Below, piece after piece: positions 58,183 to 64,000 of a stretch of 64,000 bases of DNA (positions within the stretch are counted from its first letter, which is position 1; each line of letters begins with the position of its first letter). Source of the stretch: Candidatus Latescibacterota bacterium (GTDB taxonomy: Bacteria; Latescibacterota; UBA2968); contig OZ242195.1 in assembly GCA_965205975.1 (NCBI GenBank), forward strand, positions 192,001-256,000, written 5' to 3'. The translations under genes and the position numbers were made by a program. The notes beneath the pieces were generated by a model. The model was not told where the DNA came from. It saw only the letters and a program-made list of their open reading frames with translations, and did no database searches.

Positions 58183-58346
58183 CTCAGATAGGGTTGTTTT
58201 TTTCACTTTTAAAAATTGAAATGGAACAAAATGAACACCTTTTTTTAAATAGTTAGTAAGCGTGGGTTTGCTGACGCAAATTATATATCCTTGTTTTTTA
58301 GTGCCTTAGAATATTCTGAGGCACTTTTTTTGTTTTTTTTGAAAAT

Positions 58347-58362
58347 GGGCACGGTATTTGCA
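58347..58362 (+). promoter_or_regulatory. sigma54 (-24/-12) promoter
   Basis: GGCACG-GTAT-TTGCA with correct GG-N10-GC spacing; AT-rich upstream tract. Confidence 0.65.
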
Positions 58363-58432
58363 GATATGCTGTGTGCAAATCGCACTCGTGTTAATGCGGC
58401 GGGGATGTCCGCGATGATAGAGGGGTGAAGTT

Positions 58433-59722
58433 TTGAAAAATACTACAGTTGCATTTTACAGCCAACATCTCATTGGCGTGGGGCACCATTTTCGCAATCG
58501 ACAGATTGTCAATGAACTGGTCAAAACATGCGATGTGTTTTTCATCGATGGCGGACGCCCTGTTCCCGAAGCCGATCTCGATGAAGGGGTAATGCGTATT
58601 TCTCTGCCGCCGCTTCGCACGGGACCACAGGGGCTTGAGTCTGTTGATACGGAGCGTGATTTGCAGGCTGTGATGCACGAGCGTCAGGCCAGGCTTTCCG
58701 AAGCGATGGAACAGATTTGTCCGGATGTGTTTTGTGTTGAGTTCTTCCCCTTTTCCAGATGGTCGCTCAAGGGCGAAATCCTCAATACTATTGTCAGGCT
58801 CAATGAGGTCAATTCCGACGCGAAGGTGTTGTGTTCACTGCGCGATATTCCCACACGGGCAAAAAGCAATGTGTTGCAACCGACTGTCACACCTGTCCAG
58901 AGACGCGATGGAGACGCGATGCGGTTTTATTCGGTGCCTTTTGGCGGGATACATCACGAGTATTTGGCTTTTAATCGGCGGTATTACGAGGAGGTCGTGC
59001 CCGTGTTGAATCAGTATTTCGATGCAGTGATGGTGCATGGCGATTCCCAACTATCCCGGTTGGAAGATCACTTTCCCTGGGTAGATGATATCGGTATTCC
59101 CGTGGTTTATACGGGGTTTGTTTCTGAGAAACTCGGTGACGCATCTCGGCCTGATGGTGCGCCTGATCGGTATGTGTTGGTCAGTGCTGGCGGTGGGGTT
59201 GAGGGACTTGCGCTTGTTGCGCCGTGTATTGAAGCGTGGAAACAATTAGCACAGTACAATGCGCACGGTGGGCGCGAGATGGTGATTTTTGCAGGTGCGT
59301 TTATCGATGAAACGCATTTTGACGCTTTGCGTGGGTTGTGCGGTGATGGTCCGTTTCTCATTGAACGCTTTACGTCCAATTTTTTGGCGTGGATGAAACA
59401 CGCGGATTTGTCGATTAGCCGCGCGGGCTACAATACGTGTATGAATGTGCTTGAGACAGGTATTCCATCGATTCTGGTGCCGAGTATTGCGATGGATGAT
59501 CAGGAATTTCGCGCACAGAAGTTGATGGGGTTGGGTATTGTACAGGTGATACATCCCGATCAACTCGGTGTGACAAAGATGGCAAAAGCTATTGCCGAAA
59601 TGCTCGAAAGTGCTGTGCCTGAATACCATCTATCCCTGGATGGTGCCGAGCAAACGCGAAAGTTTATAGACAGCGGTCAGCAGTTGGCAGTCAGCAAAAC
59701 AGAAATAGCGGTTAGCCGTTAG
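58433..59722 (+). CDS. GT-B glycosyltransferase (GT28-C-terminal / RedA-like)
   Basis: YSQH..G.GH..R, EFFPF, SLRDI, VSAGGG, SRAGYNT. Confidence 0.85.
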   Translation: MKNTTVAFYSQHLIGVGHHFRNRQIVNELVKTCDVFFIDGGRPVPEADLDEGVMRISLPPLRTGPQGLESVDTERDLQAVMHERQARLSEAMEQICPDVFCVEFFPFSRWSLKGEILNTIVRLNEVNSDAKVLCSLRDIPTRAKSNVLQPTVTPVQRRDGDAMRFYSVPFGGIHHEYLAFNRRYYEEVVPVLNQYFDAVMVHGDSQLSRLEDHFPWVDDIGIPVVYTGFVSEKLGDASRPDGAPDRYVLVSAGGGVEGLALVAPCIEAWKQLAQYNAHGGREMVIFAGAFIDETHFDALRGLCGDGPFLIERFTSNFLAWMKHADLSISRAGYNTCMNVLETGIPSILVPSIAMDDQEFRAQKLMGLGIVQVIHPDQLGVTKMAKAIAEMLESAVPEYHLSLDGAEQTRKFIDSGQQLAVSKTEIAVSR

Positions 59723-59884
59723 ATTCCCCCTCTCACCTCCCTCTGATGCCCTCATGGCAGATCTCCCTCCTGTTGCCGGGGTTGGGGTGCGAAAGGGAGG
59801 GGTTGACCGCATGGATGAGCTGACAAATGGTGGTTGGGTGGCTGGGTGGGCTAATTGCTGACCGCTAAATAGATGAGGTGAAAG

Positions 59885-61288
59885 ATGAAAATTTATGTGT
59901 CACATCAGTATCACTACCGCGAGAAAGTAATGGCGTCGAATAGCGGGGCAGTTCTTTCGGGGTTTAACCATGTACAGGCGTTATCGAAGTATTGCGAGGT
60001 GTATATGCCAACGTCTGAAGCGGTGGATTATGGTCCGAATTTGCACGGTATTCAACCCGCATTTGAAACGATTGATTCGTCTCGCCAGTGGTTTGCGCGG
60101 CAGGATTTTGATGGCGTGTTGATGTTTGAACCCAAAGCAGATGACCTGGCATTTTTTCGCCATGTGTGTCCTGCACCCATTGTGATTCGGCTGTCGTGTT
60201 CTTTTGGGCACAATCGGGATTTTGTCGATAAGGTGCTGAATTGTTATTCGCTGTTGCGGCCTTATGATGTCCTGTCGCCCAAATCGGCGTATGTCGCTGA
60301 CGAAGTGGGTAAGCTGGTGTTTGACAGATCGTATTTGCACGCGATTAACAATGGGGTAGATGCCGAGGTGTTCAGGCCGATGGATAAGTTGCAAGCGCGC
60401 AAAGAAGTCGCGGATAAGACGGGTGATCAACGTTTTTTAGAGATGCCAGTGGTGGGTTTTTGCGGGCGGTTTGAGCCGGGCAAGGGCGCATATCCGTTTT
60501 TGCGAATGGCGGACCTGAATCCCAATGTGTTGTTTGCTGTGATTGGCAAGCAGTTCAGTCCCGTGACACATGCGCCCAATGTGATCTTTTTGGGCGCGCA
60601 ACCCTATAGGGATATGCCGCTGTATTACAATATGCTCGATGTGTTGTGTGCGCTGTCGGTGTATTCGTATGAGTCGTGTCCCTCAACTGTGCTGGAGGGC
60701 ATGGCGTGTGGCCTTCCTGTTGTTGCGACAAATTTTGCGGGCGCGCCAGAGTTGTTGGGCGCTTGTGGGCGGTTGATTGAGATTGAGCGATTTGAAGACG
60801 AGCCATTAAATGTGACGGGGTATATCGCCCCTGAGGTGATTTCAGATGCTGTGCGCGATTTGTTGAATAGCAAAACGGAGCGCATAGAAATGGGTGAGGG
60901 TGCTCGCAAACGCGCACTAGAATTTTCCTGGGATTGTATGGCGCAGCAGCACATGGCACTGTTTGACAATTTGCGGATCAAACGCGATGTCCCCGCCTGT
61001 CCGATACCAATAACCGTGAGTTTTACACAGGGTTGTGATGTATCTGGTGTGCCGAAAAGTATGTCTAAGGGGTTTAACTATTTGGGAAGCGCGCAAGGCC
61101 CATTGCCGCGCATTTCGTTTTTGGGGCAAGACCTGTCCTTTCTTGAAGGTCTGGGTCTTCACTTGATGCAACATTTACATCCGAACGAAGTCGAAGCTGC
61201 TCTGATGGGCTTATGCGAGACGCGCGCTGGAGCTTATAAGACGCTTCGCAAAATTCGACACTTCAGCGATATGCTCACGGCTCCCTGA
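59885..61288 (+). CDS. GT4-family glycosyltransferase with ~100-aa C-terminal extension
   Basis: NGVD...F.P, GRF...KG, ESCPSTVLEGMACGLPVV (E-x7-E), FSW. Confidence 0.88.
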   Translation: MKIYVSHQYHYREKVMASNSGAVLSGFNHVQALSKYCEVYMPTSEAVDYGPNLHGIQPAFETIDSSRQWFARQDFDGVLMFEPKADDLAFFRHVCPAPIVIRLSCSFGHNRDFVDKVLNCYSLLRPYDVLSPKSAYVADEVGKLVFDRSYLHAINNGVDAEVFRPMDKLQARKEVADKTGDQRFLEMPVVGFCGRFEPGKGAYPFLRMADLNPNVLFAVIGKQFSPVTHAPNVIFLGAQPYRDMPLYYNMLDVLCALSVYSYESCPSTVLEGMACGLPVVATNFAGAPELLGACGRLIEIERFEDEPLNVTGYIAPEVISDAVRDLLNSKTERIEMGEGARKRALEFSWDCMAQQHMALFDNLRIKRDVPACPIPITVSFTQGCDVSGVPKSMSKGFNYLGSAQGPLPRISFLGQDLSFLEGLGLHLMQHLHPNEVEAALMGLCETRAGAYKTLRKIRHFSDMLTAP

Positions 61289-61341
61289 TTAGTAAAGGGG
61301 TACGGCTTATGTTGAGGTGGTAAAGAAAGGAGGTGAGAGAA

Positions 61342-61560
61342 ATGACTGAGCGCATTATATCAAGGCCAGCACAAGTTTCTGTTACCTGTGTTCAACTCCC
61401 CGGTCAAGAAATCGAACTGGCACGTGGTGAGATGGCGAATACATCAGGAGGATGCATTTTGCCAGGAGAAGATTTGTTTGAGCACGACCCACTTGAGCCT
61501 CTTGAAGATATTATTGATGATATCTGCGATACGGTGAGTGAATGGTGGGCTTCCTGGTAG
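61342..61560 (+). CDS. Putative RiPP/bacteriocin-like precursor 1 (double-glycine leader, 72 aa)
   Basis: AGGAGGT RBS; leader ending ELARGEMANTSGG; upstream of a C39 exporter. Confidence 0.75.
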   Translation: MTERIISRPAQVSVTCVQLPGQEIELARGEMANTSGGCILPGEDLFEHDPLEPLEDIIDDICDTVSEWWASW

Positions 61561-61662
61561 CAATCGCGCTACACTCCATAAGACGCTATTTCTGTTGCTC
61601 AGATGCTGGACGAAAACCATCTTTTTTGCTGGATCTTACAATTCATTTACCTGGAGGATATC

Positions 61663-62040
61663 ATGCATAATCGCGTAACTTCAGATTCAAATTCAGATGC
61701 TGTTTTTGCCTCTTGCACGATACTGCCTATCCATCAAACAACGCTCAATGTTGAAGAAATGGCGGGCATTGATGGCCTGGGAAGTGTGGCAGATGCTATT
61801 GATGCAGCGGTAGATTATATTTCTGATGTTGTTGATTCAGTAGGAGATTGTATTTCTGATTTTGTTGATTCGTTATATTTTTACCCCGAGGAGCCTGAGT
61901 ACCAATACAGGCCTGATCCATTTGCTCCTCCCCAACCTGATAGTACATTGAATATTATCACTCAGGAAATACATAAGTGTGACGGCCCGATTGTGTACAC
62001 ATCTTATGGGACTTGTTTGTGTCCGTCACAGGGGCCGTAG
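61663..62040 (+). CDS. Putative precursor 2 (homologous leader, 125 aa)
   Basis: GGAGG RBS; leader LNVEEMAGIDG aligns without gaps to precursor 1. Confidence 0.68.
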   Translation: MHNRVTSDSNSDAVFASCTILPIHQTTLNVEEMAGIDGLGSVADAIDAAVDYISDVVDSVGDCISDFVDSLYFYPEEPEYQYRPDPFAPPQPDSTLNIITQEIHKCDGPIVYTSYGTCLCPSQGP

Positions 62041-62179
62041 ATTCGTTGTGCATCAACCCGTCATTCCCGCACACGCACGCACAGTAATCCTGCTGTTCTT
62101 TTGGTACTTCTATGTGTCTGTGATGCTTGTGGCGTGTGCAGGAGTGGCGGCGTTATATGAGGCAGGACGGTTGGAGAAA

Positions 62180-64000
62180 ATGAATCTTTCGCTTTTTTTC
62201 GCCAAAAATTCAGTTCGGTCACAATCTGTTCGTTTTCCCTTTGGAAGTGTTGTTTTTCTACAGGGGCAAGCGGGAGAGGCGTTTTACATTGTGCAGTCTG
62301 GACGGTTGCGGGTGATGAAGCAGGATGCAAATGGCGATTCGGCCACTGTGGGCTATTTGTATGCGGGTGATCATTTTGGCGAAGGGGCATTGTTGCACAG
62401 GCAGGGACATCGGGCAACGGTACGAGCGGTTGAGGATGCTGATGTATTGCAAGTGCCGAAGGATGAGTTTTTTAAGGCTGTGAGAAAAAGTTCTGATGTC
62501 CGAACTTATCTTGAAGAGCAGATCGCGTGTATTGCGTATCGGGATTTTACGCGGTTTTTGAAAGGGGATGTTCCGGGCGAGGCGATGCGGGTGTTGTTCG
62601 CGCGGTTGAAGCGCGAGGCAGTTGGGGAGGGTGTGACCGTTGTTGAGCGAGGTCAGTTGGGGCAGCGATTTTATTTCATTGGCAGCGGTCAGTTGGAGGC
62701 TGTGTTAGAAAATGGGGATACGGTGGTTTTGCGCGCGGGTGATCATTTTGGCGATGGTAGAGATGATGAAGTGGTCATTCGCAGTCGGGGTGATAGCGTG
62801 CTTTTTTATATAGATAAAAGCGATTTTAATAAGTTAAAAGCTATGATACCGGGATTCGAGAAGGCGTTGGGGAGAGGCCGCATATCGCGTGGAGAACAGC
62901 GAACGAATGGAGCAGGGTTTAGACAGGCACGGGATGATCGGCAAGCCCTGTCCCCATCGGGGGGGCGAGAGGCTACACCGGTTGAGCAGTCTGTTATCCA
63001 AGAAGACACAGACGCCAATACGGCATCCAATTTGGTCAATATCAGAATAGACGGTGAAAAACCACAAGTGCCCACATGGTTTCGCTTCCCGTTTTTGAAG
63101 CAGCACGATCAATCGGATTGTGGCGCGGCGTGTTTGGGCATGATTTGCAAGTATTACAAGATGCCTATTGGATTGAACAGGCTGCGCGATATGTCCAATG
63201 TGTCGCGTTCTGGCACGTCGATGGCGGCGTTGGCCGAGGCTGCGGAAACCATAGGTTTTGTTACCCGCGGTGTGAGAACGGGGTATGAAGCTCTGATGCG
63301 TACAGAATTGCCGGCCATTCTCCATTGGGAAGGCAATCATTTTGTGGTCTTGTATCAGATTAATAAAAAGGAGGTGAAGATAGCAGATCCCGGCGTGGGT
63401 ATTCGCAAGTTGTCGCGGGCAGAGTTCGAGAAGGGCTGGACAAACAGGGCACTGTTGTTGGAATACACGGATCAGGTGGCAGAAAATGAACCGTCTCAGT
63501 CTTCTTTTAAGCGGTTTTTCCCGTTGGTAAGACCTTATACAGGCATTTTGATTGAGGTATTGCTGGCGTCTTTGGTGCTCAGTTTGTTCGGTCTGGCATC
63601 GCCCATTTTTATGCAGACGATTGTCGATCAGGTCTTAGTGCATCACGATAAGGATTTGTTGAATTTGATGCTGGTGGGTATGGTCGTTGTCGCGTTGTTC
63701 CAGATGGGCACATCGACGTTGCGCGTCTATTTAATCGGGTATATGAGTGCGCGGTTGAGCATTGCGATGTTGTCGCGTTTTTATCGGCATTTATTGGCGC
63801 TGTCCATGCAGTTTTTTGCTCTGCGGCGTACGGGCGATTTGACCACGCGGTTCAGAGAGAATGCAACGATTCAGCGTTTGTTGACGGGTGCGACGGTTTC
63901 TGCGGTTCTGGATTTTATCATGCTTTTTGTCTATCTGGGTCTGATGTTTTATTACAATGCGGAATTGACGCTGGTGATGCTGATATTTGTGCCGCTGTCT
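62180..64000 (+). CDS. Peptidase-containing ABC transporter: 2x cNMP-binding + C39 peptidase + ABC membrane domain (runs off window)
   Basis: Translated by hand (absent from ORF track, no stop seen): FYIVQSG..GDHFGE, FYFIGSG..GDHFGD, QHDQSDCGAAC, LHWEGNHFVVL, IADP, then TM helices. Confidence 0.92.
   Translation, partial: MNLSLFFAKNSVRSQSVRFPFGSVVFLQGQAGEAFYIVQSGRLRVMKQDANGDSATVGYLYAGDHFGEGALLHRQGHRATVRAVEDADVLQVPKDEFFKAVRKSSDVRTYLEEQIACIAYRDFTRFLKGDVPGEAMRVLFARLKREAVGEGVTVVERGQLGQRFYFIGSGQLEAVLENGDTVVLRAGDHFGDGRDDEVVIRSRGDSVLFYIDKSDFNKLKAMIPGFEKALGRGRISRGEQRTNGAGFRQARDDRQALSPSGGREATPVEQSVIQEDTDANTASNLVNIRIDGEKPQVPTWFRFPFLKQHDQSDCGAACLGMICKYYKMPIGLNRLRDMSNVSRSGTSMAALAEAAETIGFVTRGVRTGYEALMRTELPAILHWEGNHFVVLYQINKKEVKIADPGVGIRKLSRAEFEKGWTNRALLLEYTDQVAENEPSQSSFKRFFPLVRPYTGILIEVLLASLVLSLFGLASPIFMQTIVDQVLVHHDKDLLNLMLVGMVVVALFQMGTSTLRVYLIGYMSARLSIAMLSRFYRHLLALSMQFFALRRTGDLTTRFRENATIQRLLTGATVSAVLDFIMLFVYLGLMFYYNAELTLVMLIFVPLS

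Follow-up and report, generated by a model that had tools for sequence, protein, structure and literature searches.

Glycosylation is rare among ribosomally made peptides with post-translational modifications (RiPPs), and the glycocins, which use GT2 enzymes, are named in a 2025 paper as the only class defined by it (PMC11912497). We analysed a 64,000-nucleotide stretch of a Candidatus Latescibacterota genome (the window; G000:C1:192001-256000, G000 being the source genome), at the end of which five genes follow one another on the forward strand: a glycosyltransferase (GT) gene with a GT28_C domain, a GT4 glycosyltransferase gene (GT4x), two small genes for leader-bearing peptides (precursors A and B), and a gene for a peptidase-containing ABC transporter (PCAT) of the C39 type. 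This arrangement, with good ribosome-binding sites (RBSs) before both small open reading frames (ORFs), had led the original prediction to propose a new glycosylated RiPP system, and was seen as described. The operon represents a real, conserved and apparently undescribed variant of double-glycine peptide export with an optional module of GT-B enzymes; to judge from sequence, these enzymes likely glycosylate the exported peptides.

Glycocins (sublancin, glycocin F and thermoglycocin/orniglycocin) resemble the operon in their leader-bearing precursor, C39 PCAT, co-encoded GT and possible Cys acceptor, and at the sequence level the leader of precursor A (G-G/C) is likewise one that C39 would remove; that of precursor B ends in G-L. 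However, glycocin GTs are predicted to belong to GT2 (PMC11912497), whereas both GTs here are GT-B enzymes (GT4 and GT28_C); no Pfam or structure match to the GT2 family, the dedicated GT-A S/O-glycosyltransferases of glycocins, was found for either. The cores here are strongly acidic, and those of class A (classes are set by the leader) hold one or two Cys, so that the combination of nested disulfides (at least four Cys) and acceptor was not found. Further differences are that no thiol-disulfide oxidoreductase was recognised in the operon, that export is of the Gram-negative type with HlyD, and that the GTs are dispensable in a sister genus. Failing on GT family and disulfide pattern, the cluster is not a glycocin.

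The double-glycine bacteriocins of class II and the microcins, which leave the cell through PCAT/HlyD/TolC systems, share the L-12/E-8/M-7/G-2 leader, Gly-zipper cores and nearby CAAX/CPBP proteases, and in HetC a cNMP (cyclic nucleotide) domain precedes C39 as it does in the window exporter (PMC10986499). In contrast to these systems and to HetC-like PCATs, the operon adds the GT-B pair, a PpiC-like protein, an extra leader motif (L-19, P-18, C-22) and anionic cores. The GG-Bacteroidales system also has a GT4, that of the NCBIfam model glyco_rSAM_CFB (TIGR04157), whose genes lie in clusters with GG-leader peptides and radical SAM maturases. The window operon has no radical SAM of its own, and GT4x scored 28.9 bits against TIGR04157, far under the cut-off of 400.

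Against the idea that GT-B enzymes acting on acidic cores would be unusual, GT4 enzymes in RiPP clusters have a precedent in cacaoidin, where Cao24 is a GT4; AplG acts in the Trp N-glycosylation of NAI-112, and Tyr or Trp is glycosylated in these two systems (PMC8068269, PMC11912497). Both are lanthipeptides that carry the sugar on a cyclised scaffold, whereas in the window's operon the GTs are the only modifying enzymes; the original prediction had seen no lanthipeptide, YcaO or radical SAM enzyme in the window.

Conservation of the cluster in Latescibacterota

GT4x is, by the searches made here, a sharply bounded Latescibacterota family. The best 80 matches of a GTDB-wide scan comprised 17 full-length GT4x loci, every one from this phylum, and 63 partial matches to ordinary GT4s; in the protein database 45 of 89 matches had E<=3e-98 with the next at 6e-10, a gap of about 88 orders of magnitude. 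GT4x was identified in 23 of 41 relatives, including all 20 congeners, and its C-terminal domain in 25 of 168 genomes and 4 of 49 genera of the phylum.

The association of the GTs with precursors and exporter in other genomes, on which the original prediction depended, was borne out. Among 35 fetched GT4x loci, 34 had a precursor immediately downstream, 33 a GT28 gene upstream and 32 the exporter; a 36th match, on a contig fragment, carried two precursors and the start of an exporter. In the one locus that departs from this, L036, an intact GT4x has been displaced by about 35 kb, and to the other strand, relative to a cluster in genome G009 (L147) that is without GT4x and keeps the GT28 fusion and precursors; the displaced enzyme may act in trans. 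The source genome holds three copies of the cluster in the order GT28-like gene, GT4 gene, precursor(s) and exporter. The two other than the window's each have a fused GT4-GT28 and three precursors; CAAX/CPBP proteases precede their exporters, WecB comes after the gene for a peptidyl-prolyl isomerase (PPIase), and one of them also has a nucleotide-sugar dehydrogenase and an epimerase. Gene order is kept in two other genera, at L191 intact and at L192 truncated by an insertion sequence.

The ratio of non-synonymous to synonymous substitution (dN/dS), computed pairwise against the window copy by the Nei-Gojobori method on 9-14 non-independent pairs, was 0.18 for GT4x overall, 0.17 for its C-terminal extension and 0.24 for the GT28-like gene, within a range of 0.12-0.24 for the enzymes and the membrane fusion protein (MFP). 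The GT genes and the leaders are under purifying selection and, together with the conservation across genomes, this indicates a cluster order beyond chance.

It is quite improbable that the GT genes merely hitch-hike, having entered a single time upstream of the precursors and been kept by linkage, with the core differences described below reflecting lineage drift or other targets. Such a history would agree with a gene order that is common to kin and with repeated loss or breakage of the GTs, both in the sister genus g6 (see below) and at L035, L145, L155, L164 and L192. Against it stand the purifying selection on both GT genes, a linkage that has outlasted moves to different chromosomal sites, paralogous duplication and divergence of GT4x to 51% identity, and the presence of WecB, which, on the far side of the exporter, tracks the GT4 fusion domain.

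We did not find the cluster described in the literature, in a search outside of which lay subscription papers and supplements that could list it. The terms "glycos" and "C39" were absent from the main text of a sponge biosynthetic gene cluster survey, the supplement of which lay outside that search (PMC9426513); this metagenome survey credits Latescibacterota with high biosynthetic potential. In the text available to us, a study of Latescibacterota metagenome-assembled genomes reports generic antiSMASH RiPP-like clusters and clusters with a RiPP recognition element (RRE) only (PMC12993501).

Operons without glycosyltransferases and the core contrast

The N-terminal half of the exporter was found in 35 of 41 relatives, including all 13 genomes of genus g6, in none of which GT28 or GT4x was found. 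At the 15 g6 loci that we fetched, precursors with the same leader lie beside the exporter in every case (one a weak match), with MFP and PPIase in 14; neither of the two GT genes was identified at these loci, and one 45-aa ORF in L146 gave a short GT28 match. In exporter trees (FastTree, and a reduced IQ-TREE analysis on 18 of 51 rows) the g6 clade is nested among GT-bearing exporters. The reduced tree requires three changes, perhaps one gain and two losses, and a topology holding all GT-bearing exporters together was rejected on those 18 rows (p-AU 1.4e-52). The GT pair is an optional accessory, in our reading one for tailoring, and has probably been lost in g6.

The precursor cores differ between the two groups of operons. 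Among class A cores, Cys at the first position (Cys+1) and Trp within the last eight residues were each found in 16 of 16 with GTs and in none of 17 without; these counts exclude a class A ORF that the pattern did not pick up and a weak match to the leader hidden Markov model (HMM). For class C, Cys+1 was found in 10/15 cores with GTs and 0/13 without, and the terminal Trp in 14/15 and 0/13. Median core charge is -11 with GTs versus -3 without in class A, and -7 versus 0 in class C, with no matching acid shift in the exporter, MFP or PPIase. The contrast, seen in two precursor classes, is suggestive but not proof.

A GT-C (TMEM260-like) gene that is divergent from many GT-less operons was considered as a replacement GT, but is more probably just a chromosomal neighbour, since the source genome has its 71% orthologue at an unlinked site. 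A distant clade of the same cNMP-C39 exporter also occurs without GTs in congeners (L148-L154, L169-L172), usually with a pair of M16 peptidases upstream; very acidic Gly-Gly ORFs of 180-210 aa were present in the four loci inspected.

Sugar donor genes and reuse of the glycosyltransferase fusion

Of the 13 close-clade clusters with the GT4-GT28 fusion, 11 have WecB after the operon, against none of the 10 judgeable clusters with GT28 alone, the window's among them (a count that leaves out two standalone clusters ending at a contig edge). Because WecB tracks the fusion, GT genes and a donor gene flank the peptide genes. Compared with its paralogues, the window cluster may assemble a shorter glycan, or it may rely on enzymes of theirs.

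A more distantly related form of the fusion, accompanied by WecB and WecC, was identified in two genomes in an unrelated, RiPP-like radical SAM peptide cluster: L157/L177 (G008:C1:1450000-1482000) and L158/L178 (G020:C1:4421000-4454000). This cluster encodes a radical SAM protein of 568-586 aa, an acidic, Cys-rich ORF of 78-82 aa, an ABC transporter, an ABC2/M1-peptidase protein, the GT4-GT28 fusion, a daptide-HExxH-like protease, a further GT4, WecB and WecC, and a 333-aa protein with an Asp-rich motif that is terpene-synthase-like by eye.

Upstream of the third GT cluster of the source genome (L004, G000:C1:2814781-2820117) lie a kinase-fused activator, a 59-aa ORF, a PqqD-containing radical SAM/SPASM gene and a methyltransferase-like gene. 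We rejected this radical SAM as part of the system: upstream of the 2.81-Mb paralogue it has the 59-aa ORF as its own, and the same kinase-radical SAM-methyltransferase cassette precedes a GT-less exporter in L154. The cassette is probably separate from the GT cluster. Elsewhere in the source genome, G000:C1:2157083-2179603 (L005 and downstream) holds a GT28 paralogue, one GT2 and one GT4 gene, a fusion of a subtilase with a TIGR04066-like domain, several repeated proteins that by eye resemble beta-propellers, and an acidic, Cys/Trp-rich ORF of 75 aa at 2171537, and is a candidate for a second glycosylated-peptide cluster.

The acceptor of the glycosyltransferases

On the genomic evidence, we consider it rather probable that the GTs form a tailoring module for polymorphic anionic bacteriocin-like peptides, glycosylating their cores in the cytoplasm. 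GT4x, the family-specific retaining enzyme, would add the first sugar, most plausibly at Cys+1 or at Ser/Thr, and the GT28-like enzyme would add a further sugar or modify Trp. In the fused copies, the third GT4 domain might add an N-acetylmannosamine (ManNAc)-type sugar supplied by the linked WecB/WecC. The PpiC-like protein could chaperone Pro-rich cores, and the PCAT would cut the leader and export the cores with HlyD and an unlinked TolC-type channel. What is secreted may be a polymorphic set of anionic peptides, either bacteriocin-like or for signalling; CAAX/CPBP, DUF3267 and small membrane proteins are candidates for immunity or processing.

Several observations weigh against peptide glycosylation, or against its being central. 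The same precursor and exporter operon occurs without GTs, indicating that glycosylation does not define the system, and since the leader is conserved there too, it is no recognition signal specific to the GTs. For the most part the core contrast sets genus against genus, amounting to about one evolutionary event, and the groups with and without GTs also differ in the charge of class A leaders (-2.25 versus +0.18) and in GC content (0.49 versus 0.56), with Gly-zipper and other long cores alike in both. The GT28-like family is broad and uncharacterised (1761 matches among 7998 scored), and its paralogues sit in other GT clusters. The fused GT4 domain is closest to TIGR04063, which is associated with PEP-CTERM and exopolysaccharide (333 bits, cut-off 442). 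No peptide-binding RRE on the GT4 could be shown. Finally, a class C leader on a class A core at L049:7461-7673 suggests leader-core shuffling, with leaders and cores exchangeable between classes. The proposal of a glycosylated RiPP class therefore stands in part: features of the cores and the presence of sugar-donor genes change together with the GTs, but the operon is complete without them in 13 of 13 g6 genomes.

An alternative that we regard as unlikely is that the GTs act on a non-peptide acceptor (an envelope glycolipid, lipopolysaccharide or exopolysaccharide), as self-protection masking or a co-regulated surface trait, with the peptides exported unmodified like class II bacteriocins. 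In its favour, GT-less operons are complete, and WecB/WecC and the TIGR04063-like domain are typical of surface-polysaccharide pathways; by fold, GT4x comes nearest to GT4s that act on small molecules, lipids and polysaccharides, and many cores resemble unmodified Gly-zipper peptides. However, no flippase, polymerase or Wzx/Wzy-type gene was recognised among the annotated operon genes, and GT4x occurs essentially only beside precursors. Moreover, Cys+1 and the Trp motif track the presence of GTs in two precursor classes, and the same GT fusion has been recruited to a second peptide cluster, observations that favour the peptides as acceptors.

If cytoplasmic glycosylation of the cores is correct, the GT-B enzymes would be new glycosyltransferases for peptides, able to accept cores of great diversity, and an uncultured phylum would gain a genus-wide secreted product with 1-4 cluster copies per genome. 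The versions of the operon with and without GTs point to candidate acceptor residues, and the components are small, soluble and testable in Escherichia coli. A more ambitious proposal, which we put forward tentatively and hold to be on the whole doubtful, is that glycosylation alone defines here a second class of RiPPs, one independent of the glycocins. In such a class a GT4 with a new acceptor-binding domain would S-glycosylate the N-terminal-to-be Cys, and the GT28-like partner and an optional ManNAc-transferring GT4 would lengthen this glycan or else modify the Trp motif at the C-terminus. A cNMP-gated C39 exporter would then secrete polymorphic anionic amphipathic glycopeptides.

The two glycosyltransferases

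GT4x has the features of a retaining GT4 enzyme, with a GT-B fold, an E-x7-E motif and basic phosphate-binding residues. The donor motif is intact (R195/K200 and E263-x7-E271), and in 30 aligned homologues E263 and E271 are invariant and R195 and K200 nearly so. The AlphaFold model (pLDDT 89.6) is a GT-B fold with HepE and a sucrose-phosphate synthase as best structural matches (Z up to 27.8). GtfA/GtfB and SdgA/B, likewise of the GT4 fold, O-GlcNAcylate peptides; they act on Ser-rich or Ser-Asp repeats via an add-on domain, and their targets are large cell-wall adhesins with accessory Sec export. GtfA (4pqg, Z 18.6) and SdgB (7ec1, Z 18.8) match the GT4x fold below small-molecule GT4s, and the model thus indicates no special kinship to either pair.

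A profile search of the GT4x extension against 1.84 billion representatives gave 6 matches, of which 4 were family members or fragments and 2 repeat-protein artefacts. An RRE has three strands and three helices. In the full-length model residues 377-465 form strands and then three helices; modelled alone, the extension gave disordered strands (pLDDT 64). With this poorly folded isolated model Foldseek found nothing at E<=0.001, a wide fold search gave unrelated helical bundles at best (Z 5.0), and the structure atlas gave nothing usable; given the poor folding, these searches cannot decide on an RRE and the missing match does not imply a different fold. No profile match was found between the extension and the PqqD-like domain of the L004 radical SAM protein. 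RRE fusions have been reported for PF00535 enzymes, which are of the GT2 family (PMC12710340). Complex prediction for the pair GT4x and precursor A reached a median of 0.20, where the mark is 0.32, and weighs neither way.

The GT28-like protein has weak matches to MurG and macrolide GTs, below cut-off, and a weak YjiC- and MurG-type resemblance. In the paralogous clusters of the source genome (2.67 and 2.81 Mb) GT28 is fused behind the further GT4 domain, in a protein of about 850 aa.

Precursor peptides

We compiled 70 precursors (69 distinct) from 34 loci. Conserved leader positions are L-19 (70), G-2 (70), L-12 (66), P-18 (60), C-22 (55), M-7 (49) and E-8 (46), and at -1 we identified G (41), L (19), A (4), Q (4), T (1) and E (1). 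The leaders therefore follow the double-glycine consensus (L-12, E-8, hydrophobic -7, G-2, G/A/S-1), with G or A at -1 in 45 of 70. Two double-glycine precursors with homologous leaders had been predicted in the window. Precursor A does end in G-G before Cys in the canonical register (L-12, E-8, M-7, G-2), but the leader of precursor B ends in G-L, outside the canonical type and among the 19 of 70 with L at -1, so that its cut site is uncertain. Their homology is visible in the 70-peptide alignment, but direct BLASTP left precursors A and B unaligned. C39 cleavage at G-K has been reported in a glycocin (PMC12457901).

The precursor A core starts with Cys (codon at 61453), has a net charge of -11, and forms an amphipathic helix followed by a C-terminal Trp/Ser motif; C38, S66, W68 and W69 are invariant in 16 homologues. 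That of precursor B (net charge -13) is an acidic helix followed by a Pro/Tyr/Cys-rich tail, with three of its four Cys in this variable tail. The hydrophobic moment of the amphipathic helix in both window cores was matched by none of 2000 shuffles. By the dN/dS method given above, precursor A stands at 0.43, and precursor B at 0.29 in the leader and 1.51 and 0.92 in the two halves of the core.

Across the set, cores are highly diverse (acidic amphipathic helices, Gly-zippers, poly-Cys tails and Ser/Thr/Gly-rich stretches) and net negative in 65 of 70. GT-bearing clusters of other clades have Ser/Thr/Gly-rich cores, including a Thr-Gly-Lys repeat; the precursor core at L191:7248-7700, in a GT-bearing cluster of another genus, opens with a long Gly/Lys/Thr repeat and would be attractive as a test substrate for O-glycosylation. 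When 75,286 six-frame segments of the source genome were searched with the leader HMM, it matched the 8 precursors of the three GT clusters, all of which had served to train it, and no others (next E 1.7). Some precursor genes are preceded by repeated pieces of the 3' end of GT4x.

Exporter, accessory proteins and neighbouring genes

C39 PCATs cut G-G, G-A and G-S leaders while exporting. The window exporter is by sequence such a protein, with intact C39 residues (Q308, C314, H387, D403), confirming the Cys/His/Asp motifs noted originally, and an intact Walker A, LSGGQ, DEAT and H-loop; it scores 525.9 bits against TIGR01193, just over the cut-off of 523.85. As had been anticipated, the cluster continues past position 64000, with the rest of the exporter, HlyD and the PpiC-like protein (Table 1). 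HlyD passes its model cut-off, and 18 OEP-domain matches, none in the operon, provide outer-membrane factors in the genome.

That the exporter carries a large RTX-type protein, the small ORFs being incidental, is highly improbable. Its top NCBIfam score is indeed to the HlyB type I secretion model (643 bits), but under the cut-off of 726, and of 51 full-length exporters examined, 50 showed the C39 Cys motif (Q-x5-C). Small ORFs with leaders lie ahead of the exporter whether or not a locus has GTs, and no RTX-type gene was found downstream of the operon, where the PPIase gene is followed by DNA methyltransferase-like and HNH genes; the downstream RTX cargo that the original prediction had named among its possible refutations is therefore absent.

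Table 1. Features of the operon and its surroundings; positions without prefix are those of the window.
Feature	Position	Strand	Basis
DUF3267 zincin-type membrane protein, 210 aa	57550..58182	+	PF11667, 62.6 bits
Terminator-like hairpin in the gap between the DUF3267 and GT28-like genes	58300..58325	+	11-pair stem and T run; pattern match alone
GT28_C-domain GT-B glycosyltransferase, 429 aa, TTG start, standalone	58433..59722	+	PF04101, 47 bits
GT4 glycosyltransferase GT4x, 467 aa	59885..61288	+	PF00534, 65 bits
GT4x lineage-specific C-terminal domain, ~100 aa	60980-61285	+	Extension confined to the GT4x family
Precursor A, 72 aa, RBS AAGGAGGTG	61342..61560	+	37-aa double-Gly leader, predicted 35-aa core
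Precursor B, 125 aa, RBS GGAGG	61663..62040	+	Leader ends G38-L39, core ~86 aa
Peptidase-containing ABC transporter, 1016 aa	62180..64000, on to G000:C1:257230	+	cNMP-cNMP-C39-transmembrane domain-nucleotide-binding domain
HlyD membrane fusion protein, 460 aa	G000:C1:257342-258724, past the window	+	TIGR01843, 221 (cut-off 208.65)
PpiC/rotamase-type protein, 256 aa, last operon gene	G000:C1:258724-259494		PF00639; TIGR04500, 81 (cut-off 180)

The DUF3267 gene probably belongs to the system, since homologues lie between precursors and exporter in many loci, both GT-bearing and GT-less. Its product is likely an immunity protein or a precursor-processing protease, and matches the YydH/LiaK RiPP protease model weakly (16 bits, cut-off 225). 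The PpiC-like protein scores under the cut-off of TIGR04500, the model of a protein reported as a required partner in one graspetide pathway (PMC13097080).

The terminator-like hairpin comes from a scan near chance (17 found, 12.4 expected), and a promoter scan was at chance level (12 found, 12.3 expected). One RNA-library run had a word share of 0.06 and yielded contigs that match the GT and exporter genes at mostly 85-95%; being contigs, they cannot show transcription. Exact DNA contigs cover both precursor regions and possibly come from the source sample, so that they are not independent.

Right after the operon, a cytosine methyltransferase-like gene overlaps an HNH nuclease gene (G000:C1:259601-260867), and several relatives have restriction-modification-like genes at the same spot.

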